64,000 bases of DNA from Acidobacteriota bacterium. Lineage in GTDB: Bacteria > Acidobacteriota > UBA6911 > RPQK01 > JAJDTT01. The notes under the pieces were generated by a model. The model worked only from the letters and a program-made list of their open reading frames with translations. It did no database searches and was not told the DNA's origin. The position numbers and the translations under genes are program-made. Within the stretch, counting starts at the first letter, position 1; every line of letters begins with the position of its first letter. Shown piece after piece: positions 16,109 through 34,790 of the stretch. The stretch spans positions 448,001 through 512,000 of the forward strand of contig OZ242374.1 in the NCBI GenBank assembly GCA_965209055.1, given 5' to 3'.

Positions 16109-16266
16109 ATAGTTGAGAACCAGTTGTTAGTTACAAGTGGAGCGACCTTGATGTGGAAACCGACAGGAGGGGAATCTGGACTCGGACCCGGAGCCAGCAA
16201 GGTAGCGGCGGCTCATTCCTCAAAGGCGAGTTGGACGGCAGGGGGCAACAAACTGGCGGGAGCAAG

Positions 16267-17370
16267 ATGCACCCGAAACTGAAAGAAATTCTCTTACCTG
16301 CTTACCAGTGTGTTGGATTTACCGGCACCTGTACTTCATTGATGCAGTGGGCTCCACACCTGGGGCATGTGCCGAGAGGATTCTACGGAGCGACGGGAGA
16401 TTTGGAGGAAGTCACCTTGGTTCTGGTTCTGGCAGAACCGGGGAATCCCAGCCCCGATCCAGGACCAGAAGAATGCTATTCTGACGTTGACTCCGCGTTT
16501 GCCTTCACCGGACACTGCTTCCTGACTGCCGGTGGTCAGGGACACGAAAACGTACGGAATCTCATCTGTAGATGCTTCCCTGGATTGTCCTTGGTGAACG
16601 CCATGCGGAAGGTTTGGATTACTGAATCGGTGCTGTGCTCTGCTCCCTCCCCAGGAGCTACTGTCGGAGTTGACATCGAGCGCTTCTGTGCAGAGCGGTT
16701 TCTCCTGAGTCAGTTACGCTTGTTCCCACTAGCCACGATAGCGGCCATGGGTTCCAAGGCCATGGCTCGGCTCACACGGTACCAGGCCCAAATCCCCAAC
16801 CGAATCGTGAAGTGTGGTGCAGTCTTTCCTCCAGGATGCAACTTCAAATCCACCAGAGATAGTTGGGACAGGCTTGTAGAAATTGTCACCGAACAGGGCA
16901 AAGGAGAGTCTGCTCGTGGGGAGGAGTACCCAGTAAAGTTGAGATCTTCCCCTCCGCGCCGCCGGGGGCTCGGATCTCGTGCCGAAAGACGAGCAAGTGC
17001 ACCACGACCCGGACCGATTCCGCATTGGGAAAACGATCTGAGCCTACTGAAGCACCTGATCGAGATTATTCGGTCCGAGTTGCCGCCTGATTGTCAAACT
17101 ACGTGCATCACTCCGACCAAGAAGAGAGTGAGCTTGGATATCCCCTATCCGTTCTCCCGGCTGACCAACTCGCGGAAGTTGGTCAAGATGTTCGTCCGCC
17201 CAACGCAAGGTGTCCATGTCATGGTGCCACCGGACCTAGACCTGGAAAGTCGAGGCTGGGATCTTCACGAGAAGCAGGACAGTGCGGGAGATCAGAAACT
17301 TCTCTTCCCCTTCAATAAGGCTGAAACGTTGGCCAGAAAGCTGGGAAAGGATTTGGCCACGTTCCTTTGA
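16267..17370 (+). CDS. Uracil-DNA glycosylase superfamily protein with an extra C-terminal domain
   Basis: VLVLAEPG (motif A-like), WITESVLC, FCAERFLLSQLRLFP..IAAMGSKA; several Cys at positions reminiscent of Fe-S UDGs; ATG 16267 preferred over GTG 16153. Confidence 0.6.
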   Translation: MHPKLKEILLPAYQCVGFTGTCTSLMQWAPHLGHVPRGFYGATGDLEEVTLVLVLAEPGNPSPDPGPEECYSDVDSAFAFTGHCFLTAGGQGHENVRNLICRCFPGLSLVNAMRKVWITESVLCSAPSPGATVGVDIERFCAERFLLSQLRLFPLATIAAMGSKAMARLTRYQAQIPNRIVKCGAVFPPGCNFKSTRDSWDRLVEIVTEQGKGESARGEEYPVKLRSSPPRRRGLGSRAERRASAPRPGPIPHWENDLSLLKHLIEIIRSELPPDCQTTCITPTKKRVSLDIPYPFSRLTNSRKLVKMFVRPTQGVHVMVPPDLDLESRGWDLHEKQDSAGDQKLLFPFNKAETLARKLGKDLATFL

Positions 17371-17464
17371 GGATCAGTCCGGCGCCTGGTGACTTGAGAC
17401 GCCACCGGAGCCGACATTCGAGCCGCCGCTTCGAGGATTCCTTCGATCTGGAGAGATTTGTATC

Positions 17465-19327
17465 ATGGGCTGCATGAAAATGCCTGTGAAATACATCGTA
17501 CTGGTCACTCTGATCTCCACTGGTCTTGCGTCGGAGCAAAACCCAATCGACTTTGGTCGTCCCTCGCACGTTGTCGGCGGAGAGAGCGTTACCGGTGGCG
17601 AATTCCCCTTCGTGGCGAAAATCATCTATTACGGCAGCAGCGTCGGCTGCACCGGCAGTCTCATTGCTCCCAACAGGGTACTCACCGCCGGACACTGTGT
17701 GGTGGATTGGAGAACACGAACGCTTTCCGTAGGATTTGGATCATCGCGGTCGGCGGGATCCAGTTTCAAAGTCACTCGTAGAATATGGCACCCAGAATAT
17801 TCAGTTCAAGAGTACGATATCGCGATTCTTGAGTTCGAGCCGCCCGTTTCAATCCAGCCCGTTCGCGTGCTGTCTTTCGAGGACGAGCTGCAATATGCCC
17901 CCAGTGGAGGGCAAGGAATGGCTGTGGGCTGGGGCCGGACGGTCTCCGGCGACCCGGATTCGTTGCCCGCTAGGTTGCACAAGGTTTCGGTGCCGATCTA
18001 CACGCAGGCAGACTACTAACGGATATTGAACGAGCTGCGCGATCAAGGGAAAGATCCACAGCCGCCATCCATCCATGAATTGATCCTCTGCGCCGGTCAG
18101 GAGAATCAGGCTCCTGCGCACGGTGACAGTGGTGGGCCGCTGTTGGTACCAACCCCCGAAGGTTGGGCACAGGTAGGAGTCTTATCGCAGGCGACACAGA
18201 ATCGACAACAGACGATCTACTACATGGGGCAATATACTCGTACGTCTTTCTTATACGACTGGATATTCCCCTCGGATGTTGGGGATCAACCCGAGGACCC
18301 ACCCGAGGACCCACCTGAGACAATCGATCCCTATCGCATCCACTTTGCCCATTTCGGCACTGGCGATGGACTGGAAACCGATTTGTTGCTGCTGAATCCG
18401 CAGTCGGATGTCGCGGTCGAAGCTTCAGTGGAAGTGTTCAGCACGGACGGTACATTGCTTTTTCCGACTCGTCAGGTCGCCGCTCCACCGGCAGGGATGG
18501 TGGAATGGACGCTCCCTGTCGGTGACGAACTTGAAACAGGAAGCATCGTGGTGACGTCGCCTGCAAGGCTGTCGGGAGTCCTGCGGTTCAGATACAGCGA
18601 TGGCGGCGCCACTGCCATCAGTGCGACGCCGTTGGGGAGCAGTTTTGTTGTTCCCGTTAGTAACCAAGCCGAGCGTATCGGATTGGCCATACGAAATGCT
18701 GACGCTGAAGCTCTTGACGTAGCGCTCAAGTTGGGAACGCTTCCGAGAGTCTTCAAGACCATCCCTGGCGAGGGCCAAATCGCCGCCTTCATCGACGAGT
18801 ATTTCCCAAGTCAAACCGACCAGGAACTTGAAGGAACTCTACTCGTGCAGACGGAACCGCCAGAAGGCGAAATCACCGTATTGGCGTTAGAGTTTGTTGG
18901 TGACTCATTGGTGACATTACCTGCGACGGTATTGACAACTCCGATCATGGATAATCAACGAAAATTCAGCGATGGGGAGTCAACGGCGACTATCGAGTAC
19001 GAGCTTGATGCCGCCAAGGGGGAAGCCAAAATGGAGGCCGTTATCGTCAATAACGGTCCCACGCAAGCGTTCACTGTATATTGGCGACCCATCGACGCCG
19101 ATTGCAATTCAACTCACCCGGGTGGTGGTTGGTGGTCGGTGATGTATGAAAAGTCTGTCAGCGGTGGGTCTACGCAGACGTTCACTCTGAACACGAGTGG
19201 AGACAGGAGCTACCCGATCTCTGCGAATACGAAATGGTTGGAATGGTGGGTCCGGACAGCGAAGGAGCGGGAATGGGAGAATCTGGAACCTAAGACGAAG
19301 TGCGAGAAGCCATTCCGAGGACTGTGA
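17465..19327 (+). pseudogene. Secreted trypsin-like (S1) serine protease with C-terminal beta-rich domains, split by an in-frame TAA at 18017-18019
   Basis: VVGG start, LTAGHC and YDIAIL in 17465-18019; GDSGGPL in 18026-19327; both ORFs are in the same frame. Confidence 0.85.
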
Positions 19328-19487
19328 GATCAGACCGACTATTCCCGCGAGTCAAAGCTCTCCTTCCGCCCCCTGGCGCGAAGACTTCCGCAGGCCTTCG
19401 CAGAATCGGTTTCTGGTGCGACGTGTGGACTTCCGATTCAAGGAACCGGATCGACTCTTGTCGTCGCTCCCTTTCCATAGAGAGGTG

Positions 19488-19745
19488 CTAGCGCCTATTC
19501 TGCTGTATGGAGATCCTCTCCACCAAATTGCGGCTGGCGCGCCGTCGGTGCCGGTCGTAGATCTGGGTGTTGTGGGGATGGGCGCGCCCGGACAGGTACT
19601 GGATGTCCCCGAGCGGGTCGTTCTGACTCTACAGATCCGTCACCACTAGGTAGTGGAATGGTGGGGTGGGAGGATCTTCGGCAACCTAGCGACCTTGAGC
19701 CAGCGCTTAAACATCTGCTCCACGGCGAGTGGTGAAAACAACGGT
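19488..19745 (-). pseudogene. C-terminal remnant of a XerC/D-like tyrosine recombinase
   Basis: QMFKRWLKVARLPKILPPH, then after a frameshift LVVTDL*SQNDPLGDIQYLSGRAHPHNTQIYDRHRRRASRNLVERISI, the typical degraded GH...TTxLYD tail. Confidence 0.75.
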
Positions 19746-19751
19746 CGGATA

Positions 19752-20051
19752 GCCTTCCCGCAGGGATATTTTGGAAGGGAGCGACCCCCCCAGGGGGTGT
19801 GGCGCAGACGTAAATTGCGCCACACCCCCGCGCCCGCACCGGGCAGGAAAAAGGGGGGGTCGCTCCCTTCCACCTCCGCTTTCCCCGTGCGGGCACGGCG
19901 GAGCCGAAAACATGGCCGTAACAGCATGAGCGACAAAGAGATCGGGGAAATCGCGTGTGTAAGTTGGCAGACTCCCATGATGTAAGTTGCCCCCGTTGTC
20001 TCCCTTACACTCCCGGATCGACACGGTGGGGCGCTCTGTACCCGTCAAAAT
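19752..20051. repeat. Structured ~300-bp non-coding element, copy 1
   Basis: 19-bp perfect stem 19773-19791 / 19853-19871 enclosing two hairpins; homologous to 20376-20675, 31571-31905 (inverted) and 33927-34225. Confidence 0.85.
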
Positions 20052-20375
20052 GAGCTCCCCGGCAAGCGTGTCGCCCGCCACGAGAGCGTCGCGAACGTCG
20101 TCGTCGATCTCCACGCCGGCGGCGCGATCTTCCGCCCCTGGTCGCCACTCGATGGCCGGTCTCAGCGAGGCCCTGACGCTGCCATAGCCGTCGAATCGGC
20201 CCGCGTCCCTTTCAGCACACCCCGCATTTCTGGAAGAAGATTGCCTGTTCAATCCGCCAGATCACTCCGTCCAGCCATGGGGCCGTCCACAGACGCTTGT
20301 ACGAGCACTGGCACGCGGCGGCTTGCCCACCGCGCCGTTCCGTGCCGCAGCGCCACGCGCTCAGGCGATCCAGAC

Positions 20376-20675
20376 GCCTTCCCGGCAGGGATCATTGGGA
20401 CGGGAGCGACCCCCCGAGGCGATGGCACGGAGAGTGCCCATCAGCCTGCCCCGCTTTGCCGATCCGGGAGGCAAAAAAGGGGGGTCGCTCCCGTCCACCT
20501 CCGCTTTCCCCGAGCGGCACCGCCGAGCCGCGAGGCGAGCCGTAACCCGAACGAGGACAGCAAGTTAGAGGAAAGTCGCCGTGCACGGCGAAGAGCCCTC
20601 ATGGTGCACATGCCCTCCGTTGTCTCATGTGCACTCCCCGAGCGGCACGGAACCCCACTTTTCAGCGGTCAAGAT
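20376..20675. repeat. Structured ~300-bp non-coding element, copy 2 (diverged)
   Basis: 18-bp perfect stem 20398-20415 / 20479-20496; inner sequence diverged but still base-pairs; flanking blocks conserved. Confidence 0.8.
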
Positions 20676-20740
20676 CGACCTCCCGGAATCCGGCTCGAAC
20701 CCCAGATCACGAAGCCTGCCGGGAGAACCACCACGGCGGA

Positions 20741-21976
20741 TCAACGGAGCCGGCCGGCCACCCGTTCCGGACTCTCGCCAGCCAGATAGCTCGCCCAGTC
20801 CTCCATGAGCCGACGCCGACGCTCGAACAGGTCCGTGCGCCGGTACGCCGCCTCGACCTTGTTCTTCACCACATGCGCCAGCGCCGCCTCGACCACCTCG
20901 CGTGGATGATCCGTCTCCTCGGCCGCCCAGTCCCGGAAACTCGACCGGAACCCGTGCGGCACGGCGGCGATCCCGTTCCGGCGCAGCAGCTTGCGCAACC
21001 GGCCGGAGCCGAGCGGCTTTCCGCCCCTTCGGGCGAAGATCAACCGGGTGGCTCCATGATCCAGCGTGCGTGCCTTCTCCAGGATCTCATTCGCCCGGCG
21101 GCACAAAGGCACCCGGTGCGCCCGTTTGGTCTTCATGCGCATTCCGGGAACCGTCCACGTCCTTTGCGCCGGATCGATCTCCGGCCACTCGGCCCACCGC
21201 ACCTCGCCCCACCTCGCCGCCGTGAGCACCAGGAACTCGAAGGCCAGCAGGGACACGGGCATCGCGTTGGAGGCCCGCACCTTCCGGAGGGCCGCCCCCA
21301 CCTCGCGATGCGGCAAGGCCGGCATGTGCCGCACCACGTCGTCCTGTGCTCCGAGCACCGACACGACCCGGTCGCAGGGGTTGTCGGTCCGGTATTCCAT
21401 CGCCACGGCCCACTCCAGGACCGTGCGGAGGCGCTGACGCACGGTCCGGGCCGTGCGCGACTTCACGTGCCAGATGGGCACGAGGATCTCCAGGACGTCG
21501 CCGCTGGTCACCTCCGAGACCGGCATCCGGCCGATGTGAGGAAAGGCGTAGCGTCGAAAGCTCGCCATCCAGTCGTGGGCCTGCCTCTGATTGCGCCAGC
21601 CGGCCCGCTTCTGCTCCACCACCCGCTCGGCGGCTTCGGCGAAGGTCGGCATGTTGCGCGTGCGTCGTCTCTCGGTCAGGGGATCTCCACCCTCGCGGGC
21701 CAGCTTGCGGTTGGCCCGCGCCTTCTCGCGGGCCTCGGCCAGGGACACCAGTGCCACACCGCCGAGTCCGAAGTCGCGGCGGCGGCCGCGGATGACGAGG
21801 CGTTGGATCCAGCTTCGTGCTCCGTTAGGCTTGACGAAGAGGTAGAGTCCGTTGCCGTCGCAGTGTTTGCCCGGTGGGGCGGAGCGCACGAAAGCGGCGG
21901 AGAGCGCCTTGTGGGGGTGGCGGCCCTTCGGCTTGGTCTTCCGGGGCAAAAGGGGAGCACTGATTACATCACCCAT
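20741..21976 (-). CDS. int: P4-type tyrosine integrase (arm-binding DUF4102-like N-terminus), apparently intact
   Basis: GKHCDGNGLYLFV..GARSWIQR, VSLAEAREKA, catalytic R (TAARWGE), K (MKT), HGFR, LAH and AY. Confidence 0.92.
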   Translation of the reverse strand: MGDVISAPLLPRKTKPKGRHPHKALSAAFVRSAPPGKHCDGNGLYLFVKPNGARSWIQRLVIRGRRRDFGLGGVALVSLAEAREKARANRKLAREGGDPLTERRRTRNMPTFAEAAERVVEQKRAGWRNQRQAHDWMASFRRYAFPHIGRMPVSEVTSGDVLEILVPIWHVKSRTARTVRQRLRTVLEWAVAMEYRTDNPCDRVVSVLGAQDDVVRHMPALPHREVGAALRKVRASNAMPVSLLAFEFLVLTAARWGEVRWAEWPEIDPAQRTWTVPGMRMKTKRAHRVPLCRRANEILEKARTLDHGATRLIFARRGGKPLGSGRLRKLLRRNGIAAVPHGFRSSFRDWAAEETDHPREVVEAALAHVVKNKVEAAYRRTDLFERRRRLMEDWASYLAGESPERVAGRLR

Positions 21977-22146
21977 TACACCATAATAAACGGGATGGAG
22001 ATGGATATCAAGGGACGTCAGGGGAGGAAGAAACGGGGTGAGAACAGGTCTAAACTAAAGAAAAACAACCACTTAAAATATATTCCGGGATCTCTTGGGA
22101 TATCTCTGGATTCAATGGGTGTGTTGCCGTCCCCCCTACCCCCCTG

Positions 22147-22176
22147 TCGGCGGTAGGAAAGTCGCCGCTCCCCTAC
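22147..22176. repeat. REP-like element (GTAGGGGAGCGGCGACTTTCCTACCGCCG on the minus strand)
   Basis: Similar to the 3677 and 5003 units; its GTAG head contains the stop codon of the DUF1501 gene. Confidence 0.65.
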
Positions 22177-23624
22177 GCCATTATTTCGGTGACGGCGTGT
22201 CCGTGGACGTCGGTCAGGCGGCGTTCGATGCCGTTGTGGTAGTAGGTGAGGCGTCTATGGTCGATCCCCAGCAGGTGAAGGACCGTGGCGTGGTAGTCGT
22301 AGATGGTGACCGGGCTCTCCGCCGGCTTGTAGCCCAGCTCGTCTGAAGCTCCATAGATGAACCCCGGCTTGAGGCCGGCCCCGGCCAGCCAGCAGGTGAA
22401 GCACTCGGGGTGATGGTCCCGTCCCAGGGCGCCTCCCTGGGCCACGGGCGTCCGGCCGAACTCGGTCACCCCCAAGACGAGCGTGTCCTCCAGCATGCCG
22501 CGCGAATCCAGGTCCTGGAGCAGGCCGGCGACGGGACGATCGTACTCCAGCGCCATCTTGGTGTGGTTTTTCTCCAGTCTGCCATGGGCATCCCAGCTGT
22601 TTCCCGGGCCGCCGTTGTAAACCTGGACGAATCGAACTCCGCGCTCCAGCAGGCGGCGCGCCAGCAGACAGCGGCGGCCGAACGCTTCGGTTTCTTTCGC
22701 GTCCAGGCCGTAGAGTCGGCGGGTGCTCTCGCTTTCCCGCTCGATATCGGCAATTTCAGGGACGCTCAACTGCATCCGCGCCGCCAGCTCGTAGGATTTG
22801 AGCCGCGCCTCCAGCGAGCTGTCGCCCGGATGCGCTTGCTGGTAGACGCGATTCATGCGTGTCAGCCACTTCAGGCCGGCGCGCCGCTGGGCGGGCGGGA
22901 CAGATTCGGGAGTGGTCAGATCATGCAGTGCATCGCCGGACGTGCGAAACGGCGTCCCCTGGTGGGAAGCGGGCAAGAAAGAAGCGCCCCACTGCAGAAC
23001 GCCTCCCCAGGGGTGGTCGGCGGGGTCGGGCAGGACGACGAACGCCGGCAGGTCTTCGTTCTCGGTCCCCAGCCCGTAGCTGATCCAGGCCCCCATGCTG
23101 GGAAAGCCGCTCAGCGGAAAACCGGTGTTCATCTGGGCCACCGCCGGCATGTGGTTGGCGCTTTTGGAGACCATGGATTGAATGAGCGTGAGATTGTCGG
23201 CGCACCCGGCCAGATGCGGCAGCAGGCTGCTCACCCAGAGTCCACTCTCGCCGCGCCGGCGGAACTCGAACGGACTCCCGAAAAGGTGGCCGGCCTCTCC
23301 GAAGAACGTGGTCATTTTGAACGGGGTGCCGTTGCGCCTGGTGAGTTCGGGTTTGTAGTCCAACGTGTCGAGGTGGCTCATGCCGCCGAGTGCGAACACC
23401 TGGACGACGCGCTTGGCTCTGGGAGTAAAGTGCGGCAGTTGGCTCGACCCGGAGGCTGGGGCGTTCCCGCGCGCCGCACCCGCGGCCAACGCTTCCCGAT
23501 GGGTCAACCACGAGAGCGCCATCCAGCCGAATCCCGCTCCGGCATCGAAGAGCCATCGGCGGCGGGACAGCGGGCTGAATCGGCGTTGTATTGCTGAGAG
23601 TCCGGCCATACGGCAATCCGTCAA
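22173..23624 (-). CDS. DUF1501 (sulfatase-like) protein with Tat-like signal
   Basis: SRRRWL, HFTPRAKRVVQVFALGGMSHLDTLDYKP, LLARRLLERGVRFVQV, TEFGRTP, GRDHH. Confidence 0.92.
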   Translation of the reverse strand: MTDCRMAGLSAIQRRFSPLSRRRWLFDAGAGFGWMALSWLTHREALAAGAARGNAPASGSSQLPHFTPRAKRVVQVFALGGMSHLDTLDYKPELTRRNGTPFKMTTFFGEAGHLFGSPFEFRRRGESGLWVSSLLPHLAGCADNLTLIQSMVSKSANHMPAVAQMNTGFPLSGFPSMGAWISYGLGTENEDLPAFVVLPDPADHPWGGVLQWGASFLPASHQGTPFRTSGDALHDLTTPESVPPAQRRAGLKWLTRMNRVYQQAHPGDSSLEARLKSYELAARMQLSVPEIADIERESESTRRLYGLDAKETEAFGRRCLLARRLLERGVRFVQVYNGGPGNSWDAHGRLEKNHTKMALEYDRPVAGLLQDLDSRGMLEDTLVLGVTEFGRTPVAQGGALGRDHHPECFTCWLAGAGLKPGFIYGASDELGYKPAESPVTIYDYHATVLHLLGIDHRRLTYYHNGIERRLTDVHGHAVTEIMA

Positions 23625-26600
23625 TTCACGTACAGAAACTCGCTGGTGTTGAAGAGGCCCCAGCAGAGACTGGACAGCCCGTGTTCTCCAACCAGATCTT
23701 CGCTCCAGCTCAACTCCTCCCGTCCCGGCAAACGTCCCAGCGCAATCCGGAAGGCGCGGCGGACCTGGTGTTCCCGGCCGGACTCCGATTCCCGTTCAAC
23801 CCGGCCGGCGAACGCCCGGGCTTGCCGCAGGACGAAGGCATTGTTCATGAGGCTCAGCGCCTGCAGGGCGGTCGTCGTGACCACGCGCTTGGGGGTCTTC
23901 ACGTTCGGATTGGGACAATCGAACGAGTCGAGCAACGGACTCGGCGCCGAGACGACGCTCATGCGATACACGGAGCGGCGGTTGAGCGCCGGTTCATCGG
24001 CATCGACCTGCGTATACATCTCGAAGGCGCCCGGTTTCTCTTCCGATCTAAAAGGACGGAAGCTGGGACCCCCCATTTCCCAGTTCACCTGTCCGCTGGC
24101 CAGAAGCATCGCGTCGCGGATGGCCTCTCCTTCGAGGCGTCGCGGAGCGTAACGCCAGAGCAGCCGGTTGCCGGCGTCGATTTCCGCGGCGGCCGCTCTC
24201 CAGGCCGAGGCTTGACGATAGGTTTGCGACGTCATGATGAGGCGGTGCAGGTTCTTGACGCTCCATCCGCCTCGTATGAACTCGCCGGCCAGCCAGTCGA
24301 GCAACTCGGGGTGGGTCGGTTGACCGCCATTGAAACCGAGATCATTGGGATTCTCCACCAGGCCCCTTCCGAAGAGGTAGTGCCAAACGCGGTTCACCAT
24401 GGTTCTGGCGAAGATGGGATTTCGGGGATTCGCCAGCCACTCCGCCAACCGAATTCGGCGATCCGCTTCGGGAGCGTCTACCTCCAGTCCGAACTCGGGC
24501 GAACCAGCCGGGATGCAGGACAAGCCCCCGGCCGACACCTTCTCCAATTTCGTGTTCGGGTCGCCGCGTTCCAGCAGCCAGGTCGAGCCGGGCTGCCGGA
24601 CGTCGGCGGCATAGATCCTCTGCGGGTCCGGAATCGCCTCCCGCCGCGCCCGCAAATTCTTCAGTTCGGCCCGCAGTTCGAGCGCCCTCGATCTCTCGGC
24701 GGAAGTCATGACCGGGTCCAATTCTTCTTGCCGGACATTGGGAGCCCCGCCCCGGTAGGAGGCCTCCACCTGATCCTCGGTCAGGGCGACGTCGTAAAGG
24801 CGCGCTTCCTCCAGTTCAAGGTCCTTGGAGACGTTGAACGCCACTCTCGCTTCCCCGGCCAGGTAAGTCTGCAGCCGGCCTTCCGGGATCCTGATGTCGG
24901 GAGTGTAGGCCTCGCCGTACGGTTTGCCATCTCGGTAAAGGCGAATGCTGTGGTCGGCCGCGTAGCAGATCGCGATATGGATCAACCGGGCGGCCTCGCC
25001 GGTTTCCGCTGTCCCGTTCCCATCCGCGGTGCGGAAGGAGCTGCTGCTGGTATTCAGCCACTCCTTGGAGTCGCCGCCGGAGAACATGATGCCGTCCTTA
25101 ACGGCGCCGAGCAAAGCTTCCGTATTGTGGATTTGAACGGCGGTGATCAGCTCTTCCGGAAGCCGGTTCAACCAGAACCAGGCTTCGATCGTCTTTTCCC
25201 GCAATTCCCGGGGGAGCGGGACCGTCTTGACGGCCGCCGACCCCTTGGGGTCTGTGCCGGCGGCCACCCGCAGGCGCCCTTCGGCCAGGACCACTTTCTC
25301 CGACATCTCGATGTGCAGGGACCCCGCCGAGTCGCGGCTGTTGAGATCGAAGGTCCACCGGGCGATGGGAGAGGGCGCGGCGACGTTCGCCGGACCGCCT
25401 GCCCTCCGTGACAGCACACGCCGGCGAGCGGGAAGCTCAATGGAGGCCAGACGATCTTCGAACCGTGCAATCGGTTCCTCGAGTGATTGCACCCGTTCCC
25501 GGAGCGCGACCTGCTCGGCAGGCGTCAGCAGGTCCCGGTCTCCCTGCCAGACGCCGTCGAAGGCGGCCTTCATCCGGTAGTACTCGCGCTGCGGGATGGG
25601 GTCGTACTTGTGGTCGTGGCAGCGCGCGCAGTTCACGGTCAGGCCCAGGAAGGTCTGCGAGACCGTCCCGATCATCTCCTCCATCTGTTCCTGCCGGACC
25701 ATCTCGCGCTGCACGGGGACGCTGGACATGAATCCCACGGTGTCGGAGGGTCCGGACACCAGAAACCCGGTGGCGACGACACCGTCACGGGTGACCGGCG
25801 CCAACACGTCGCCGGCGATCTGTTCCCGAGCGAAATCCAGGTAGGGTTTGTCCCGGTTGAAGCTCCCGATGACGTAGTCGCGATAGGGCCAGGCGTTTTC
25901 CCGGAGCGTGTCCCGTTCGAACCCCTCGCTCTCGGCGAAACGCATCACGTCGAGCCAATGCCGCCCCCAGCGTTCCCCATAGCGGGGGGACGTCAGCAGA
26001 CGGTCGATCAGCTTCTCGTAGGCCGCGGGAGAGGAGTCGTCGATAAAGGCCGAGATGTCCTCAAAGCTGGGCGGCAGTCCGGTTAGGTCGTAGCTGGCCC
26101 GGCGAATGAGCGTCCGGCGGTCGGCCGGTGGACTGGGCTCCAGACCCGCTTCCGTCATCCGGGAGTAGACGAACCGGTCGATGGGCGAGGACTGCCACTG
26201 CTCCGGTGTCGTTTCCGGCAATGGCGCCTGAGGTTTGCGCAAGGGCTGGAAAGACCACCAGTCGGAGTCGTTGCGCTTGATTGGCGATTTTGACCCGATC
26301 GGACGGTCCCACGCCGCGCCGGCTGCAATCCAATCCCTGAAAACCTCACGATCCGCCGCAGACAGGGGACTCCCCGGAGGCATCTCCCCGGAGGAGACCC
26401 TGGACCACAGCAGGCTTGACTCGGGATGGCCGGGGACCAGAGCCGGCCCGTGGTCTCCACCGCGAAGGGCGGTTTCGAGCTGCGTCAGGTCCAGTCCGGA
26501 AGTCGCCAATTGGGAGTTGTGACAGCCGAGACATTCGGCCGCGATCAGTTCGGTGGCCCGCGACTCCGGGTCTGATGGACCGACCTCCGAACGAGCCCGG

Positions 26601-26659
26601 CTCGCCAACGCCAGCCCGGCGATCGAAAGGAAGACGATGATGGTTCTGTTTCTCTTCAA
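23621..26659 (-). CDS. PSD1/PSCyt (DUF1553/DUF1549) planctomycete cytochrome c domain protein with LamG-like insert
   Basis: CLGCH and CARCHDHKYDPI heme motifs, YGERWGRHWLDV, HPELLDWLA, QALSLMN; adjacent to DUF1501 as is usual. Confidence 0.92.
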   Translation of the reverse strand: MKRNRTIIVFLSIAGLALASRARSEVGPSDPESRATELIAAECLGCHNSQLATSGLDLTQLETALRGGDHGPALVPGHPESSLLWSRVSSGEMPPGSPLSAADREVFRDWIAAGAAWDRPIGSKSPIKRNDSDWWSFQPLRKPQAPLPETTPEQWQSSPIDRFVYSRMTEAGLEPSPPADRRTLIRRASYDLTGLPPSFEDISAFIDDSSPAAYEKLIDRLLTSPRYGERWGRHWLDVMRFAESEGFERDTLRENAWPYRDYVIGSFNRDKPYLDFAREQIAGDVLAPVTRDGVVATGFLVSGPSDTVGFMSSVPVQREMVRQEQMEEMIGTVSQTFLGLTVNCARCHDHKYDPIPQREYYRMKAAFDGVWQGDRDLLTPAEQVALRERVQSLEEPIARFEDRLASIELPARRRVLSRRAGGPANVAAPSPIARWTFDLNSRDSAGSLHIEMSEKVVLAEGRLRVAAGTDPKGSAAVKTVPLPRELREKTIEAWFWLNRLPEELITAVQIHNTEALLGAVKDGIMFSGGDSKEWLNTSSSSFRTADGNGTAETGEAARLIHIAICYAADHSIRLYRDGKPYGEAYTPDIRIPEGRLQTYLAGEARVAFNVSKDLELEEARLYDVALTEDQVEASYRGGAPNVRQEELDPVMTSAERSRALELRAELKNLRARREAIPDPQRIYAADVRQPGSTWLLERGDPNTKLEKVSAGGLSCIPAGSPEFGLEVDAPEADRRIRLAEWLANPRNPIFARTMVNRVWHYLFGRGLVENPNDLGFNGGQPTHPELLDWLAGEFIRGGWSVKNLHRLIMTSQTYRQASAWRAAAAEIDAGNRLLWRYAPRRLEGEAIRDAMLLASGQVNWEMGGPSFRPFRSEEKPGAFEMYTQVDADEPALNRRSVYRMSVVSAPSPLLDSFDCPNPNVKTPKRVVTTTALQALSLMNNAFVLRQARAFAGRVERESESGREHQVRRAFRIALGRLPGREELSWSEDLVGEHGLSSLCWGLFNTSEFLYVN

Positions 26660-26977
26660 GAGAGGGACCTGCGGGCAATTTTACACCAACCGCGGCTCTT
26701 GTCTCGAACGGTAGGAGCGGGGGTTTTCCAATCCCGTCCGCCCCTCAGTCAAGAACTACTAAACATTAACGTTTTCAGTCATTTTTCGGGTTCTTCGCCG
26801 AATCGGAAAAGTGGTTGACTCCCTGTGTCTGGCACGCTGCACAGGCAACAAACAGGCAGCATAGTCAACACCCGAAAGCCGACACATCCTTCCTCGTTTC
26901 CGATCTGCCCTACCGGACAGACTCGCCAAATCCCTTTTTTTCGGAGGCTATACCCTGCGTTTCTACCGCCATGGTTC

Positions 26978-27244
26978 TTACCTAGAAGTATTCACTCGAT
27001 TGACCACGTGCACTTTTAACCTGGGTCCCAGGCGCGGGTGATCAACCTGGATCATCTCTTCAAGAGCCGGGATCCGAACAAAGCACGGTCGATCTGGTGA
27101 CCCGCACAACTCAGACTGTGCCCGGGCGACCGGTTCCACCGAACATGCCCCTTGGCCCGCCAGCATTGCGAGCGATAGGGCAATCACTCCAAACACCACG
27201 CGGCTGTACCAATCAACCAATATTACTTTGTGTCTCGATACCAT
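26978..27244 (-). CDS. Small hypothetical membrane or secreted protein (88 aa)
   Basis: GGAGG RBS before ATG 27244; hydrophobic helix VVFGVIALSLAMLAG; CGSPDRPC. Confidence 0.55.
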   Translation of the reverse strand: MVSRHKVILVDWYSRVVFGVIALSLAMLAGQGACSVEPVARAQSELCGSPDRPCFVRIPALEEMIQVDHPRLGPRLKVHVVNRVNTSR

Positions 27245-27874
27245 GTTTCCTCCTATCTCTTTCGTCTGTCCCGTTTCGCCAAGCGGTTGTATCACACAAG
27301 CTGAAGATTGTGCTCATCACTATCTTCGATGCGTTCCAAGGCGAGATTTCTCAGCACTCTGCTCTTTCCAAGGGTGAGTCCGCGTCACCCAGCCGTTGAG
27401 GTCTCGGGTTATTCCCAATACTGAGTACAACGGCTGAAATCGGGATCGGTCACACTCTTTTTGACGGCAGCGGCTTCGGGGATGATTTGAGGGGCAGACT
27501 AGAGCGGTCATCGAGGCGCTGCTGGATCAGCGTGGCGGCACGGTTCAATGCTAGGTCATTAGAAGTTCGATCTGGAGCTTCGATTTCCGAAGTCGAGCCT
27601 GCCGACGTGGTGACGCAGCCGACAGGCCATGAGTCAACTCGTCCTATGCCGGAGGAAGAGCCAGCCTGACAGTCATTTTGCTTCACCCGTCGCTGGGGTT
27701 CAACGCAACATAGGCCCACCAGTCCCTCTTCCAGAGAGATCCACAAAAGTCCATTAAGTATCTATTCAACAGCTATTTGCCTCGCTTACCCGTCCATACT
27801 TTTCCAGTAGCATATCTTGACATCCGGGGGCAATATCGGAGGCAGATCAGAAATTTTCGAAAGGAGTTGCCCCC

Positions 27875-29126
27875 ATGCCTCTCACTGCTATTGCCATCCG
27901 TGATGCCAAACCCTCCGCGAAGACCCGAAAAATGTTCGACGGACGCGGTCTGTACTTGGAATTAACTCCCCGCGGCAACAAGTGGTGGCGCCTGAAATAC
28001 CGCTTCGCAGGCAAGGAGAAGCGGATCTCCCTGGGTGTCTATCCGGACGTATCTCTGAAGCAAGCCCGGAAGTCGGCGCCAGGAGGCCCGCCGGCTATTG
28101 GCCCAGGGGATCAATCCCAGCGAGCACCGCAAAGCGCAGAAGGCCGCGAAAGAGCAAGGGGCCGCCAACAGCTTCGAAGCGGTGGCGCGGGAATGGTTCA
28201 GCAAACATTCTCCCAACTGGGCCACCAGTCATGCCAGCCGGGTCCTCAGCCGACTGGAGCGAGATGTTTTCCCGTGGATGGGCAGCAACCCCGCGCCTAC
28301 CATCACCGCACCCGAATTGTTGACGGTCGTTCGCCGGATCGAACAACGGGGGGCTCTGGAGAGTGCCCACCGGACCCTTCAGATCTGCGGTCAAGTATTT
28401 CGCTATGCCGTGGCCACTGGAAGGGCGCAGCGTGACCCTTCGGGTGACTTACGGGGTGCGTTGCCGCCGTTCAGGACCAAACACTTTGCAGCGCTCACCG
28501 AACCGAAGCAGGTGGGTCCCTTGCTGCGAGTGCTGGACGGCTACCAAGGGACACTGATCGTGCGTTGTGCCCTGCGCTTCGCTCCGTTGGTCTTCGTTCG
28601 ACCTGGAGAGTTACGCCAAGCTCAGTGGTCGGACATCGATCTGGAGGCGGCCGAGTGGCGCTACACAGTCAGCAAGACCGAGATTCGCCACATCGTTCCG
28701 CTCTCCCGCCAAGCGGTGGAGATCCTGCGCGAACTACACCCTCTGACCGGGCAGGGGCGCTATGTGTTTCCCAGTGCCCGCACTCCGAGGGGAGACCGGC
28801 CCATGAGCGACAATGCCGTTCTCGCCGCCCTGCGCCGTATGGGAATCGGGAAGGAGGAGATGACGGGCCATGGGTTTCGGGCGATGGCGAGAACGATCCT
28901 GGATGAAGTGTTGGGATTTCGTCCCGACTTCATCGAGCACCAGTTGGCCCACGCGGTGCGGGATCCCAACGGGCGGGCTTACAACCGCACGGCCTATCTC
29001 CCGGAACGGAGAAAGATGATGCAGGAGTGGGCCGACTACCTCGATCAACTGAAGGCTGATGTCGTTCCGATGCATCCAAAGCGACTGGATCAAAACTCAG
29101 GAATCCACCTGAGCGGTGGTCTCTAG
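27875..29126 (+). pseudogene. int: P4-type (IntA-like) tyrosine integrase with a +1 frameshift at ~28070
   Basis: MPLTAIAIRDAKP..DGRGLYL..WRLKYRFAGKEK in frame 1; removing one A restores ARSRRQEARRLLAQGINPS; VRPGEL, HGFR, QLAH and AYNR are intact; GGGGGCA / TGCCCCC arm-type sites upstream. Confidence 0.88.
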
Positions 29127-29237
29127 TGCCGTCTGGTTTCCCGTCGAAAAAACCCAAGACATCCAGAGATCGCCTGCAAGGGAAGGGAACCGGCTTTCAA
29201 TCTCCTGGGCGGCCTGTGGCGAGCGGCTTTCAATGAG

Positions 29238-29324
29238 TGCCCGGGGTGGGAGTCGAACCCACATGGAGGGAGAACCTCCACAGGATTTTAAGTCCTGCGC
29301 GTCTGCCAGTTTCGCCACCCGGGC
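29238..29324 (-). tRNA. tRNA-Leu (anticodon TAA)
   Basis: GCCCGGG/CCCGGGC acceptor stem, TGGCGAAACTGGCAGACGC D-arm, CAGGA-CT-TAA-AA-TCCTG anticodon arm, long variable arm TGGAGG/CCTCCA, GTGGGTTCGACTCCCAC T-arm; CCA not encoded. Confidence 0.95.
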
Positions 29325-29527
29325 ATCCATCCGCCCCTCCAACGGGGACGGCCGGCCCGATCGTATCCAGGAAGCGCGCCCGGAAGCCACCACCGCCGGG
29401 CCTCCACGGCCGATGAATCCGTCTCCTGCCGCCAGGGAATATCCCGGCAAGGGTTTTCTCCGGAGTGTATTCTCAATCCACGAGATCCTGGTTCCGGACC
29501 CGCACTCCCGGAAGAGGTGCGATCCTC

Positions 29528-31492
29528 ATGCTCTGGCGCCGCCGAGTCCCACCCCCCGAACCCCGGCCGGTCCTGGAGTCCTTCCTTCTGCGGGTCCTCG
29601 GCCAGCTCCGCAACCGCCGGTCCCCCTGGCAACAACACCAGCCCTCCGAATACCGGATCTGGCCCGAGCGCTTTCCTTCCCACCAGCCCTACGCCGGGGT
29701 CCAGGGACTGCACCTTCTCTGTCGGGCCGCCGAGCGGGGATACTCTGACCCCCTTTGGGCCACCCGGGACCGGATCGAAGCCGCCGGGGGCCGGATTTCC
29801 AAGGATCAGACTGGTGTCCTCCCCCTCCCGGCCGGGGACCTTGATTCCCCGCCGCCGGAGAGCCCCCCGGCACAGAACGGCTCCGAAGAGGGCTCGGCCG
29901 CTCTTTTCAACGTCGAGCAGGCCACGGGCCTGTTCCTCCCGCCGCGTGACGATCGGCCCCCGCCTTCCTGGGAGGTCTACAAACGGGTCGAGCGTCTGCT
30001 CGAAGCCAGCGGCGTCGGCCGCCGCCACGAACCCGGTGACCGGGCCTACTACCACCTGGGAGAGGACCGGATCGTCCTGCCGCCGCAGGACCGGTTCCCC
30101 GGCGCCCGGCGCTATTACCAGACCCTTCTTCACGAACTCGGCCACGGGACCGGCCACCCGGACCGGCTCAACTGTCCGGGCCTCGCCGCCGCCCTTCGGG
30201 ACGGGCCCGACTCGACCGCTGCCGCCCGCGAAGAGCTCCGGGCCGAGATCGCGGCCCTGATGACCGGCGTCCGGATCGGCCTCGGCCACCGGCCCCGCAA
30301 TGGGGAGTTCTACACCAAGCACTGGATCCAACTCCTGGAGTCCGATCCCCGGGAACTGGTCCGGGCCGCTGCCGACGCCTGGCGCATGAGCGAGGCCCTG
30401 CTCGCCGGCGCCCGCGAGCTCAAGGAGCGGACCACCGAGCCGTCCTCCGTCCGTTCCGGCGTCCGGGAGGCACCGCGGCTCCGGATCCGACAGATTGCCC
30501 CGGCGCTCGCCTCCCCTCCGCTCCCCGCTCTGGGAGCGCCCCGTCCGGCGCCGGGCGCCGACGTGCTGGAGCGCTTCGGCTGGCACGGGGAAGAGGCCGA
30601 GTGGATCGCCTTGGTCTGCCGCCACGGCGGCTGGTTCACCCGCGCCCAGTTCTGCGCCCATTTCCGTTGCCGGAGAAACCGCGCCCTGCGCTTCGTCCGC
30701 CGCCTCGTCGCACGCCGCCACGGCGTCGAGGAGGACCTCGACGGCCTGCCCACCACCACCCGGACCTGCCGCATCGCCGCCAAGGCCTTGTACCGCGCGC
30801 TGGGCCTGGAGCGCGTCCCCCACCCCGGATCTTCCGCTTGGGTCCGGCTCCGCCGTCTGCTCTCGCTCGATTACGTCATCGATCACCCCCAGCGGCGGTG
30901 GCTTCCCACCGGGCGGGAGAAGGCCTGGGCGCTGGAGGCGCTGGGCCTTTCCCGGCGGCTGTTCCCGTGCCGCCACTATGCCGGCCATGCTCAGGGACGG
31001 AGCCGCTACTTCCCCCGCAAGCTCCCGCTGGCCCTGGAGGAGGACCGGGCGACCTTCGTCTACGTCGATCCCGGCCGGGACACCGACTCGGAACTGCTCT
31101 CGTGGGGGGCGGAGCACGCCCCGCTCTGGGCCTCGCTACGCGCACAAGACCACCCGGTGCACGTGGTCGCGGTGGCCCGCGACGACCTCCGCCGGGAGCG
31201 GGCCGAAAAGGTCCTGCGCCGCTGGGCCGGCCCTGGTCCCGTGGCCGAGTTCGAGCCCCTGTCCCCGGAGGAGGAGCAGGTCATCCGCATCATCGGGCAG
31301 GCCGTCCGGACCAACGACCGGGAGTGCCTCGCCCGCTACGGCGGCTTTTTGAACGCCCTGGACCACCGCCAGGCGTTGCTGGAGCGGGCCACCGCCCCCA
31401 TCCCTCAAAACCGCATCCGCATCGACCGGGGCCGAACTTGGCTCTCGGTCCGGATTACAGCGGAAACGGAGGTAGGATTGTGGAGCGCCTGA
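29528..31492 (+). CDS. ArdC-like ssDNA-binding + zincin metallopeptidase (HELGH) protein fused to a C-terminal uncharacterised mobile-element domain
   Basis: PW...QPYAGVQGLHLL..ERGYSDPLWAT..GGRI.K; AYY..EDRIVLP; YYQTLLHELGHGTGHPDRLN; REELRAEIA; then a ~310-aa tail (WIALVCRHGGWFTRAQF...RRLLSLDYV...FVYVDPG); GTG 29465 is an alternative start. Confidence 0.8.
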   Translation: MLWRRRVPPPEPRPVLESFLLRVLGQLRNRRSPWQQHQPSEYRIWPERFPSHQPYAGVQGLHLLCRAAERGYSDPLWATRDRIEAAGGRISKDQTGVLPLPAGDLDSPPPESPPAQNGSEEGSAALFNVEQATGLFLPPRDDRPPPSWEVYKRVERLLEASGVGRRHEPGDRAYYHLGEDRIVLPPQDRFPGARRYYQTLLHELGHGTGHPDRLNCPGLAAALRDGPDSTAAAREELRAEIAALMTGVRIGLGHRPRNGEFYTKHWIQLLESDPRELVRAAADAWRMSEALLAGARELKERTTEPSSVRSGVREAPRLRIRQIAPALASPPLPALGAPRPAPGADVLERFGWHGEEAEWIALVCRHGGWFTRAQFCAHFRCRRNRALRFVRRLVARRHGVEEDLDGLPTTTRTCRIAAKALYRALGLERVPHPGSSAWVRLRRLLSLDYVIDHPQRRWLPTGREKAWALEALGLSRRLFPCRHYAGHAQGRSRYFPRKLPLALEEDRATFVYVDPGRDTDSELLSWGAEHAPLWASLRAQDHPVHVVAVARDDLRRERAEKVLRRWAGPGPVAEFEPLSPEEEQVIRIIGQAVRTNDRECLARYGGFLNALDHRQALLERATAPIPQNRIRIDRGRTWLSVRITAETEVGLWSA

Positions 31493-31570
31493 GGGGTCGC
31501 ATGCGCCCGGTCCCGGGTGGAACCTGTGGACATCGTGGATCCACGGGCTGCGAAGAGCACGGAAAGTCCC

Positions 31571-31905
31571 ATTGACGGCAATGTGGCGGACCGCTCCCGG
31601 GCCGTGTTCCACCTCCGGGGGCGTGTCCGGAGAAGTCCCAGGATGTGAAACACACATGGGGGGGTGTGTTCCACTCTCGGAGCAGCGAGTGTTACACGCT
31701 TCCTTTCCGCTATCTTGTTGAGCCCCTTCGAGTTGTCCCCGTCCTCCTGAAGGAGGCGCGCCCGGACGAGGAGTCCGGGGAGAAGAAGTGAGCGACCCCC
31801 CCTTTTTGCCGCCCGGTGCGGGCGCGGGGGTGTTGCGCAATTCACATCTGCGCAGCACCCCCTGGGGGGGGTCGCTCCCGTCCAAATTATCCCTGGCGGG
31901 AAGGC
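31571..31905. repeat. Structured non-coding element, copy 3 (inverted relative to the others; distal half diverged)
   Basis: GAGCGACCCCCCCTTTTTGC...GCCCGGTGCGGGCGCGGGGGTGTTGCGCAATTCACATCTGCGCAGCACCCCCTGGGGGGGGTCGCTCCCGTCCAAATTATCCCTGGCGGGAAGGC at ~31790-31905. Confidence 0.8.
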
Positions 31906-32295
31906 CCCTGCGAAGATTTCTGAAGACCTTTTGTGGCCATCCAAGGCGTCCATTCCCCTCACGTGGCACAACATGATCTCGGGATGACCACAGGCCACAA
32001 GTGCCACCGGGGTACGCTTGAAGGATGAGGATTTTCCGCGTCCGCTTGGACGACGACCTGGACCGAGCCCTAGAGTGTCTGGACTCGCTATACTACGTGA
32101 ACATCAGCGACTGGGGCGCTCGTCACTCAGCACCGGGAAAACTCCCTGCCGGTCTGGAACGGGCCACCATCAAGATCAAGACACGGGGACGTGGGTGCCT
32201 TGATCCGCACCGTCGTCGAGGTCCTCCAACGCGACTCGGATTTCGGCCTAGTCCGCGATTAGGGTATAGGATAGACTGAGAGGGAGGAGATATAG

Positions 32296-32487
32296 ATGCC
32301 CCCAGAACTCGAACCCTGGATTTCCCCCGCCGTCATCGTCGGATTTATGCTCTACTTGAACCGCCGCCTCGAATCCCGGCTGGATCGGATGGAATCTCAG
32401 ATCGGGGAACTTCGGGAGCGAATGGCGCACCTGGAAGGGCTTCTGGAAGGCCTGCGCGAAGCCATCACCCGCCAGCCCGCCGCCTGA
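32296..32487 (+). CDS. Small single-TM coiled-coil protein (63 aa)
   Basis: GGAGG RBS; hydrophobic PAVIVGFMLYL followed by heptads LESRLDRMESQIGELRERMAHLEGLLEGLREAI. Confidence 0.75.
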   Translation: MPPELEPWISPAVIVGFMLYLNRRLESRLDRMESQIGELRERMAHLEGLLEGLREAITRQPAA

Positions 32488-32810
32488 GCGGCGCGGGCCT
32501 GCTCAACAAGTTCCTGGACTAGATTCGGTAGATGGCGGATTTCATCGGTCATTTCATTAGAGGGCTGATCTGGGAATACCGGAAGCAGAAGCGGCAACAG
32601 CGGGCCGTTAAGGCGCGCCGGAAAAAGACTCAGGACCTATCGGAAACACAGAATCGTTGGAGCGTCTTTTTCCGGGAACTGAGTTCCGCTCCTGATAGTG
32701 GCAATAGGTCGCGAGTGGTAGGGCTCGGGCTCCCGCCGGGGCCATCGCGAAGGGTCCCGGCACAAGAACAACCACCCGTGGGAATCTCGGATCGCTACGG
32801 GGGAGAACAT

Positions 32811-33218
32811 ATGGCTTATCAAATCCGAGGAACGACTGAACGGGAGCGGGCTGAAGAAACCCTCCAAATCATCAACGGTTTGCTTCCATCAAAGGGGACG
32901 ATTACGCCGCCGACTGGGAAATCGGACCAGGTGCGTTATGTGCTGACTCATGATGCTCTCGTTCCGAAGATGCGGGAGATGGGAAAACGGAAGCCGAGAG
33001 TTGCGGCGACCTTCCGGGCCGAGCCCAAGAGTCAACTTTGGGCAAAGAGGAGTTTTCAGGGGAATTCTGTTGAGAGACGGGATGTGACGGTTCTCGTGCC
33101 CTTGTTGGGCAAGGACATTGGCTTGAGTGAGAACCATAGAGGAGAACCTTGCACCTATGTCACTAGCGTCCCGGAGGCCAGAGCTCTCGCTAGGGAGATT
33201 TGTCGCGTCTGGCCTTGA
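32811..33218 (+). CDS. Hypothetical protein (135 aa)
   Basis: GGAG RBS before ATG 32811, within the longer ORF 32532-33218; no recognisable motif. Confidence 0.5.
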   Translation: MAYQIRGTTERERAEETLQIINGLLPSKGTITPPTGKSDQVRYVLTHDALVPKMREMGKRKPRVAATFRAEPKSQLWAKRSFQGNSVERRDVTVLVPLLGKDIGLSENHRGEPCTYVTSVPEARALAREICRVWP

Positions 33219-33451
33219 GTTTTCTCCTGTCACCTGTCGGTGATCCCGCTTCCGGACAGGGATGTAGTATTTGCTTTATCGTTCCCTGAGCCGATCCCAG
33301 AGAGTCGCCCGCTTGTTCCCGCCGACGATCCGACGCTTCCTCCGGACCCGCGAGCCGCGATTGGCGGCACCGCCGGTAGAAGTCCTCGATCGTCACTAGT
33401 TGAGACTCATTCTTTCCCTTCATACTCTCCGCCCAGGTTCGCAAGAAGAAA

Positions 33452-33793
33452 AGACACATACCAACTACAGGTCCCTGACAAGAGAGCGCCGAGGCCCTGG
33501 GTTCGAGCCTCCCCACCCTGTGGGAAATCAAAGATTTCCCACAGGGTGTCAGGCTCACCCTGCCTGACCCTTTTTCACGCGCTCCTGTTTGTCGCGTCCC
33601 ATGAGAATGGGTCCCTCGCGCAGTCTCGGACTGCTTCCAGCCGGGAGCAGACTTTCTTCCGTGGGGGGCGCTGATTGTGGGGTCGGCAAAACGACGCACC
33701 CTGTTGGGAAATCTCTGATTTTCCACACGGTGGGGAGGCTCGAACCCAGGGCCTCGGCGCTCTCTGGAAGGGATTTTCAGTTGGTATGTGTCT
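33452..33793. repeat. ~97-bp inverted repeat pair (33452-33548 / 33697-33793) with a 37-bp identical core and an internal hairpin
   Basis: AGAGAGCGCCGAGGCCCTGGGTTCGAGCCTCCCCACC at 33481-33517 and its exact reverse complement at 33729-33765; CACCCTGTGGGAAATC-AAA-GATTTCCCACAGGGTG hairpin. Confidence 0.9.
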
Positions 33794-33926
33794 CTTCGCA
33801 TCCGGGGGGTTCGGGGGGGCTGGCCCACCCGCGACGAGCGTCAGGTTCACTGGCGGCAATTTGAACCGCCAGGGGTTCTGGCGCAACTGGGGGGACAGGT
33901 CCACCCGGTCCACGGTCTTCCTCCGG

Positions 33927-34225
33927 GCCTTCCTGCAAGGATAATTGAGACGGGAGCGACCCCCCCAGGGGGTGTTGCGCAGATGTGAATCGCGCAACGC
34001 CCCCGCGCCCGCACCGGGCAGCAAAAAGGGGGGGTCGCTCCCGTCCACCTCCGTTTTCCCCGTGCGGGCGCCGGCGTCCGGGAATCTGGTCGTAACCACA
34101 AGCCGGAAAGGGAGATCGGGGACCTCACCTGTGTAAGGTGGAAAGCCCTCATGATGTAAGTGACCCCCGTTGTCTCACTGACACTCCCGGATCAGCCACG
34201 TGACCCTTTTTTCAGCGGTTAAAAT
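33927..34225. repeat. Structured ~300-bp non-coding element, copy 4
   Basis: GACGGGAGCGACCCCCCC...GGGGGGGTCGCTCCCGTC closing stem; colinear with copy 1 over its whole length. Confidence 0.85.
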
Positions 34226-34790
34226 CAGCCTCCGTCAGCCTTTGCGACTGCCCAGCGCCCTCACCGCCGATCACGATCTGGACGGAGCGATCTTCGACCA
34301 CTTCGACCACTAGTTGCCACAGGAACGGCCGCTTCAGCGGGTTTGGAACGGCATGAAAGGCAACGGATCGGGGAAAGCGTCTTTGTGAATCACAGGGACC
34401 GCTTTTTGTGAATCGACCCCCCTTGTCCCATTCACATCCTGGATCGGGCGCGAAACCCTCTTGACGCACACCCGAAACGAGTCACGAATGACCTTTCGCC
34501 TGTCGAGTGTGCGGCGCTCATGACACCGTTCCCCCGGCAGCGAGAAGTTCACCTCCGCTTCGACCAGCGGCGGGATGGATCGCCTTGGAGAGTTCGGCGT
34601 ATAATCCCCTTTTCAAAAGCCGCAGCTTCGGCATCCAGTTTCTTGAGCCGTTCCATCCGGAATCGGTTGAATGCCAATCCGACGATGACCTAAAGGCTGT
34701 CAGGATCTACCGCAGGAAACGAAGGGAGTGCCCTACCGGCTAGTATGGCTGCCGGGATCCGCTCCTCGGTTGAGCCACCGAAGAGGAACC

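Follow-up and report, generated by a model that had tools for sequence, protein, structure and literature searches.

What is the structured element of about 280 nt that recurs in a 64,000-nt stretch of DNA from an Acidobacteriota bacterium? The stretch, referred to here as the window, spans positions 448001-512000 of a 6.08-Mb genome; positions below are those of the window unless marked as genome positions. The original prediction, made from the sequence of the window, had described the element and proposed several roles for it, among them a non-coding RNA (ncRNA) and an origin of transfer (oriT). Our analysis suggests that it is probably the oriT region of a family of integrative and conjugative elements (ICEs) that occurs in Acidobacteriota, Gemmatimonadota and further phyla. 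The partner of the element would be a protein or domain of about 313 aa, here called X, which combines winged-helix and restriction-endonuclease-like domains and occurs either alone or fused to ArdC. Most copies of the element in this genome are most likely orphan origins on small integrase-bearing islands.

Copies had originally been placed at 19752-20051, 20376-20675 and 33927-34225 on the plus strand and at 31905-31571 on the minus strand. All four were recovered, but the count was too low: profile search with a score cut-off of > 60 bits found a fifth, partial copy in the window and 75 copies in the genome. The copies in the window, with the parts of copies 1 and 2 that are referred to below, are as follows.

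19752..20030, plus strand: copy 1, orphan oriT-like element of the TGTAAG flavour
19752-19772, plus strand: conserved 5' block of copy 1
19773-19791 and 19853-19871, plus strand: arms of the closing stem P1 of copy 1
19793-19829, plus strand: hairpin P2 of copy 1, its loop carrying the heptamer-like GTAAAT
19832-19844, plus strand: hairpin P3 of copy 1
19916-19922, plus strand: CCGTAAC of copy 1
19958-19964 and 19981-19987 (direct) and 20004-20009 (inverted), plus strand: heptamers of copy 1
20376..20655, plus strand: copy 2, oriT-like element with a rewritten P2
20581-20586, 20604-20609 and 20629-20634, plus strand: GTGCAC repeats of copy 2
31625..31904, minus strand: copy 4, adjoining an ArdC-X fusion, with heptamers of the GTGGAAC type
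33927..34205, plus strand: copy 3, orphan oriT-like element of the TGTAAG flavour with a degenerate inverted repeat
34244..34447, plus strand: partial fifth copy (profile positions 67-269), TGTGAAT flavour

All genome copies share a sharp start, (G)CCTTCC, and homology breaks off sharply at this point, element position 1. The following parts of the layout described originally were found again: the stem P1, hairpins P2 and P3, the ACCTCCG.TTTCCCCG and CGTAAC blocks, and a module of two direct repeats and one inverted repeat at 23-nt spacing. No conserved open reading frame (ORF) was present within the element, as had also been stated. In an alignment of 69 sequences across phyla, the 5' block CCTTCCCGCAGGGATAAATGAGGACG and the P1 core AGCGACCCC were near-invariant.

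The genes around X place the element in conjugation clusters. Among 8000 scored candidates, 969 X proteins were found at E <= 0.001, and a scan of reference genomes confirmed 572 X loci; the following counts rest on 80 of these loci, from Acidobacteriota, Longimicrobiales, Acidimicrobiia, Deltaproteobacteria, Dehalococcoidia and Aminicenantes. The element lay directly 3' of X on the opposite strand, and thus convergent with it, in 74 (profile search). VirB8/TrbL homologues were encoded upstream in 64, and a type IV coupling protein (T4CP) homologue downstream, on the strand of X, in 59. A Pfam scan of 42 ORFs from 14 loci gave the gene order TrbI, TrbL/VirB6, VirB8, X, element, TraG/TrwB-type coupling protein; at three of the 14, RepA_C and an ArdC-X fusion stood in place of this mating-pore and T4CP order. 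In other phyla the element was internal to conjugation clusters and no integrase lay alongside. The convergent pairing of X with the element is conserved, with type IV secretion genes on one side of the pair and the gene for the coupling protein on the other.

The same arrangement was seen in an ICE resident in this genome.

Genome 1.826-1.846 Mb: resident ICE with genes for AlpA, primase, TrbC, VirB4/TrbE, TrbI, TrbL, VirB8, X, the element, T4CP and ArdC

Known relaxase families were absent among the 21 ORFs of this ICE scanned with Pfam and the 10 scanned with NCBIfam, and no MOBP relaxase was seen. The element lies in a conjugative locus beside the genes for a relaxosome candidate and a coupling protein, and it combines inverted repeats with a conserved block that could hold the nic site, as is characteristic of an oriT. 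Of the roles first proposed, an oriT through which relaxase-less islands are mobilised in trans fits best, given the partnership with X in type IV secretion system (T4SS) clusters and the copies without X beside integrases. We infer that X would bind the element through its winged helix, that it would then cut, or help to cut, one strand near the large inverted repeat, and that the coupling protein would pass this strand to the secretion system.

The sites that X would bind are short repeats that differ between elements. They had been noticed as a switch from TGTAAG to GTGCAC in the distal part of the element and read as paired changes. Because the first direct repeat also switches, as does a fourth copy located in the P2 loop, the switch is no evidence of pairing. 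The co-switching repeats are instead one heptamer, TGNNNCA, present up to four times per element: in the P2 loop, as two direct repeats and as one inverted repeat, with 23-nt spacing. Recurrence was assessed with the 6-mer of the second direct repeat in the 69 sequences, against 1000 shuffles. The 6-mer recurred in the P1 interior in 34 sequences (shuffled mean 4.5, maximum 10), in the first-repeat region in 28 (mean 2.5, maximum 8) and inverted, downstream, in 46 (mean 4.2, maximum 11). In 30 of the 34 P1-interior cases the minimum-energy fold left at least 4 of its 6 bases unpaired, which places this heptamer in the P2 loop.

The heptamer tracked the residues of X directly before the conserved RFV of its third helix, with the following matches.

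Heptamer TGCCACA: X helix DRKRALRFV
Heptamer TGGAACA: X helix RRNRALRFV
Heptamer TGCACAT: X helix DRWQALRFV
Heptamer TGTGACA: X helix HRWTAARFV
Heptamer TGTTCCA: X helix QRITASRFV

Among pairs of X proteins at least 75% identical, the heptamer core was common to 40 of 53 pairs with the same helix and to 23 of 395 pairs with different helices. The corresponding counts in the lower identity bins were 8/25 against 43/663 and 2/5 against 41/875, a binning that controls for relatedness only in part. Two X proteins of this genome followed the matches of other lineages, although they are only about 45% identical to the X proteins of those lineages: the stand-alone X of the resident ICE (genome 1832396-1833328; NRWRAMRFV, GTGCAC) and that of the ArdC fusion in the window (RRNRALRFV, GTGGAAC).

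29465..31492, plus strand: ArdC-X fusion, with the ArdC N-terminal and zincin-like domains followed by X (about 30560-31489)

The start codon of this fusion is uncertain. Its C-terminal 310 aa, which hold the winged helix with the recognition helix ..RRNRALRFV and the restriction-endonuclease-like domain, also exist as a stand-alone X of about 310 aa. In all, 6 full-length homologues of X are encoded in the genome, and about 25 broken remnants of X adjoin element copies. The sixth full-length homologue (genome 1263620-1264546) has the helix ARPHRARRFV, and no recognisable element follows it.

X had no family match in Pfam (E up to 1) or NCBIfam, and in Protein Atlas it fell into unnamed clusters only. 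Its AlphaFold model had a mean predicted local distance difference test score (pLDDT) of 84.7. In the model, the first 84 residues clearly match MarR-type winged helices (Z 9-10). The middle domain, modelled alone (pLDDT 81.1), had best matches that were nearly all restriction-endonuclease-like folds, at Z of only 5.1-6.6: SdaI at 6.6 (root-mean-square deviation 4.4, 119 residues aligned), NucS at 6.2, AF1548 at 5.9, BstEII at 5.7 and N.BspD6I at 5.4. Foldseek with the whole model returned winged helices only, none of them at E <= 0.001. Searches of 72,556 plasmid records with X (tblastn) and with the element (blastn) gave no match, and a literature search of limited scope found no description of either.

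The best reading of X is a MOBC-like relaxase or relaxosome protein. The origin of the Enterococcus plasmid pAD1 contains a large inverted repeat and plasmid-specific repeats. According to the available text of PMC12857230, MOBC relaxases are related to PD-(D/E)XK enzymes, and the sites bound by TraX, the MOBC relaxase of pAD1, are five direct repeats that lie 70-120 bp from nic. As far as that text goes, pAD1/TraX and the present pair have in common a protein with a DNA-binding domain and a PD-(D/E)XK-type domain, the latter only putative in X, that adjoins its own site and a VirD4-type coupling protein, and a binding site of short direct repeats away from the rest of the origin. They differ in that the heptamers described here are spaced at 23 nt, with one inverted and one in a hairpin loop, and in that the hosts of X are Acidobacteriota, Gemmatimonadota and similar phyla.

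Several observations weigh against the assignment of X as a relaxase and of the element as an oriT. PF13814 (Replic_Relax), which is listed as MobC in CONJscan in the available part of PMC5357655, had no match in this genome, which encodes 6 full-length X proteins, and the profile comparison of X with PF13814 was insignificant (hhalign probability 0.2%, E 0.31). The PD and E-x-D residues that are invariant in the PF13814 alignment are missing from X; the invariant residues of X itself (D104, E120, K121, Y168 and D170) did not align with the PD...E-x-D...K motif. The structural matches of its modelled middle domain, with Z below 8, are middling, and X may instead be an accessory protein that binds DNA. 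One of the unannotated ORFs of the resident ICE may encode a relaxase that escaped recognition. A coupling protein gene did not adjoin X at 21 of the 80 loci. Many of the 75 genome copies are decayed and accompanied by broken X remnants, and these may be dead. The 23-nt spacing is iteron-like and would also suit an operator or a replication origin.

This last point bears on an alternative in which X plays no part in nicking for transfer but acts as a regulator, initiates replication or serves in partition, and in which the element serves as an operator, an iteron or a centromere-like site. X would then bind the heptamers to control the T4CP gene or to replicate the excised element. In plasmid origins of the iteron type, short direct repeats at a spacing of about two turns of the helix are accompanied by an inverted copy, and the winged-helix Rep protein that reads them is encoded next door. 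The element likewise has short direct repeats with an inverted copy, and X is a winged-helix protein encoded next door; its winged helix resembles those of MarR-type repressors, its catalytic motif is only putative, and the T4CP gene follows closely downstream of the element. Even so, we regard this alternative as unlikely. The element has only two direct repeats, together with a large conserved inverted repeat, and a near-invariant 5' block with a 20-bp inverted repeat is typical of transfer origins. A repressor needs no conserved second domain of nuclease-like fold, such as X has in its conjugation-cluster setting. Loci with the ArdC-X fusion already carry a separate RepA_C replication protein, and orphan copies persist on integrase islands that offer no gene to regulate.

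Copy 1 folded at -148.4 kcal/mol (z = -5.75; none of 200 shuffles as good) into a 20-bp closing stem, P1, enclosing the hairpins P2 and P3, and its reverse strand also folded (z = -4.29). Compensatory change, which had been reported from the copies in the window, is real in both P1 and P2. Across the 69 sequences, P1 was paired in 95.5% of cells against 85.6% in shuffles, and 135 cells were changed on both sides against 35.6 in shuffles, with 0 of 500 shuffles reaching 135; controls with slid arms gave 14-39 such cells. Columns 40/160 held 41 AU, 20 GC and 7 UA pairs, and columns 41/159 held 49 GC and 19 UA pairs. P2 was defined by hand because RNAalifold failed to recover it from MAFFT alignments; in 47 sequences it was 83% paired, against 33-52% with slid partners, and both sides had changed in 7 of its 11 pairs. 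The closing stem of copy 4 has mismatches because this copy is a chimera, with its 5' P1 arm from one element type and its 3' arm from another. Further mosaic copies occur in the genome, for example at genome position 184237, and suggest recombination between element copies.

Selection on a single-stranded form had been inferred from these paired changes. Counts of G.T against A.C were 20 vs 13, and 12 vs 8; they point clearly to neither strand and do not establish a single-stranded form. The stable fold and the compensatory change in P1 and P2 would also suit a structured ncRNA gene, or a cis-acting RNA in the 3' untranslated region of X or of the integrase; the element is, moreover, convergent with the integrase exactly as is the tRNA-Leu gene described below. 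We nevertheless consider an RNA very improbable. In Rfam, a comparison proposed along with the original prediction, no family covered the element: only tRNA-Leu passed its threshold, and the best overlap with the element scored 23.2 bits against a gathering score of 53.1 (E 1.9). Promoter and terminator scans of the element gave nothing beyond chance, and G.U was not clearly above A.C. The first direct repeat switches along with the second, although the two cannot both be paired at once, and the heptamers follow a protein helix. The ncRNA first proposed thus gains nothing from these results.

In this genome most copies of the element lack X and lie beside integrases. Copy 4 is the site beside the ArdC-X fusion. 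Copies 1, 2, 3 and the partial copy are without X; the islands on which they lie bear integrases and could be mobilised in trans. The original statement that the copies are confined to mobile islands holds within the window, and the island with copies 1 and 2 is missing from a related population, in which a contig joins position 15403 to position 22147; we therefore define the island by these limits.

15404..22146: 6.7-kb island, bounded by the contig junction of the related population
20741..21976, minus strand: P4-like tyrosine integrase of 411 aa (Arm-DNA-bind_3, Phage_int_M, Phage_integrase)

Besides copies 1 and 2 and the integrase, the island contains a hypothetical gene, a trypsin-like peptidase gene in two parts and a fragment of a recombinase of a second family; it carries neither X nor T4SS genes. 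It combines an integrase with a candidate oriT similar to that of an ICE. Copy 2 is 79% identical (225/285) to the element of the resident ICE (genome 1832116), and their heptamers are identical, so that this island could be mobilised in trans, as has been suggested for islands with only an oriT (bioRxiv 10.64898/2026.01.13.699239). The peptidase is split over the adjacent ORFs 17465-18019 and 18026-19327 and is probably a broken gene. Recombinases of the second family, tyrosine recombinases of 404-504 aa, lie 0.75-2.3 kb upstream of some element copies; in the window only a fragment is present (15582-15742, minus strand), and others occur, for example, at genome 2830392 and 4495966. A separate hairpin repeat resembling repetitive extragenic palindromes (REP-like), GGAGCGGCGACTTTCCTGTCGCC and its variants, often forms tandem arrays. 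One such repeat stands at the integrase-side edge of the island (about 22100-22146), and others at genome 893270-893322, 1095074, 1195992 and 5033127.

Islands of this kind resemble integrative elements that carry only an oriT (iOriTs), which the available part of a recent preprint describes as common (bioRxiv 10.64898/2026.01.13.699239). As characterised there, these are integrase islands with an oriT like that of a co-resident ICE, without relaxase or mating apparatus, and they outnumber their helpers. Copies 1-3 in the window fit this description, and copy 2 has the heptamers of the resident ICE. That study covers six nosocomial species, whereas the islands described here belong to another phylum and carry another oriT family with another candidate relaxase. 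Here, too, there are 75 copies, many with broken X remnants, and mobilisation in trans is a prediction only.

The integrase beside copy 2 was real; a longer plus-strand ORF at this place was spurious. A TnpB/omega-RNA and an IS110 bridge-RNA were considered for the element and dropped because the neighbour of copy 2 is this P4-like integrase. The integrase gene has a G+C content at third codon positions (GC3) of 0.85, about 15-20 paralogues in the genome and a convergent orientation to copy 2, with its stop codon at element position 365. Integrases of three clades, with 27-32% mutual identity, end at a fixed distance from the element and are convergent with it.

Such regularity would suit an element that is the end, or an attachment-site arm, of small tyrosine-recombinase elements, with solo copies resembling a miniature inverted-repeat transposable element (MITE) and with the heptamers as arm sites of the integrase. 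In addition to the fixed position of the integrase stop codon, this alternative is favoured by the 75 copies in one genome, by the sharp break of homology at position 1, by inverted pairs of 950-1130 bp and by one integrase clade in which an inverted copy of the first ~25 nt of the element lies at the far end. We judge it to be decidedly unlikely. The element accompanies integrase clades that are merely 27-32% identical, and in other phyla it is found inside conjugation clusters with no integrase alongside. Integrases 94% identical adjoin elements of different heptamer flavours, and the role of the heptamers as integrase arm sites was dropped for this reason. In the window, the island does not end at position 1. 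An insertion sequence or MITE end had been named as a point to check: terminal inverted repeats with target-site duplications at both ends were not present, and no duplications were found.

A second arrangement, a unit of about 4.2 kb (about 27696-31904), comprises an integrase, tRNA-Leu(taa), ArdC-X and the element, and occurs three times in the genome. The integrase side of the unit abuts the 3' end of tmRNA, of tRNA-Ile or of a tRNA fragment.

27875..29126, plus strand: frameshifted P4-like integrase of the third clade, first gene of the 4.2-kb unit
29237..29324, minus strand: tRNA-Leu(taa), between the integrase and ArdC-X in the 4.2-kb unit

The genome has six tRNA-Leu(taa) genes (the one in the window, those at genome 1991443 and 2524782, and three elsewhere), three of them within 4.2-kb units.

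Sequences upstream of the element were also shared between copies. The upstream flanks fall into families common to several copies, which indicates that element position 1 is a module junction. In many copies a small zinc-ribbon ORF (MSIPDIHN...RCPNCGY) lies 35-400 nt upstream of position 1; it points away from the element and is often frameshifted (for example at genome 577201, 2975916 and 3918465). Just upstream of copy 3 is a 61-nt inverted repeat (33481-33541/33705-33765) with arms 95% complementary and 163 nt apart, and an ORF with a T5orf172/MUG113 domain (34728-35534) adjoins copy 3 and the partial copy.

An oriT with orphan copies does not fully explain why the copies are so numerous, why some are chimeric, why they share upstream modules or why the junction at position 1 is sharp. 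A further proposal, which we put forward tentatively and which as a whole is possible but doubtful, would account for more of them. X would found a new relaxase family, a few residues of its recognition helix would specify the centre of TGNNNCA, and the heptamers would be presented in two forms, as repeats in duplex DNA and in a hairpin loop of the oriT. Orphan origins with matching heptamers would then ride particular ICEs, and cutting and rejoining by X at the 5' block would explain the junction, the chimeras and the 75 copies.

In Acidobacteriota, Gemmatimonadota and their neighbours, conjugation has hardly been studied, and the conjugative elements of these phyla appear to be without a recognised relaxase. 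For hundreds of these elements, with 572 loci confirmed in one scan, the module of element and X supplies candidates both for the origin and for the protein that processes it. The covariation of heptamer and helix leads to testable predictions of specificity and could predict which islands ride which conjugative element. Islands with only an oriT, described lately in clinical species, would also be present in environmental phyla, here at very high copy number.

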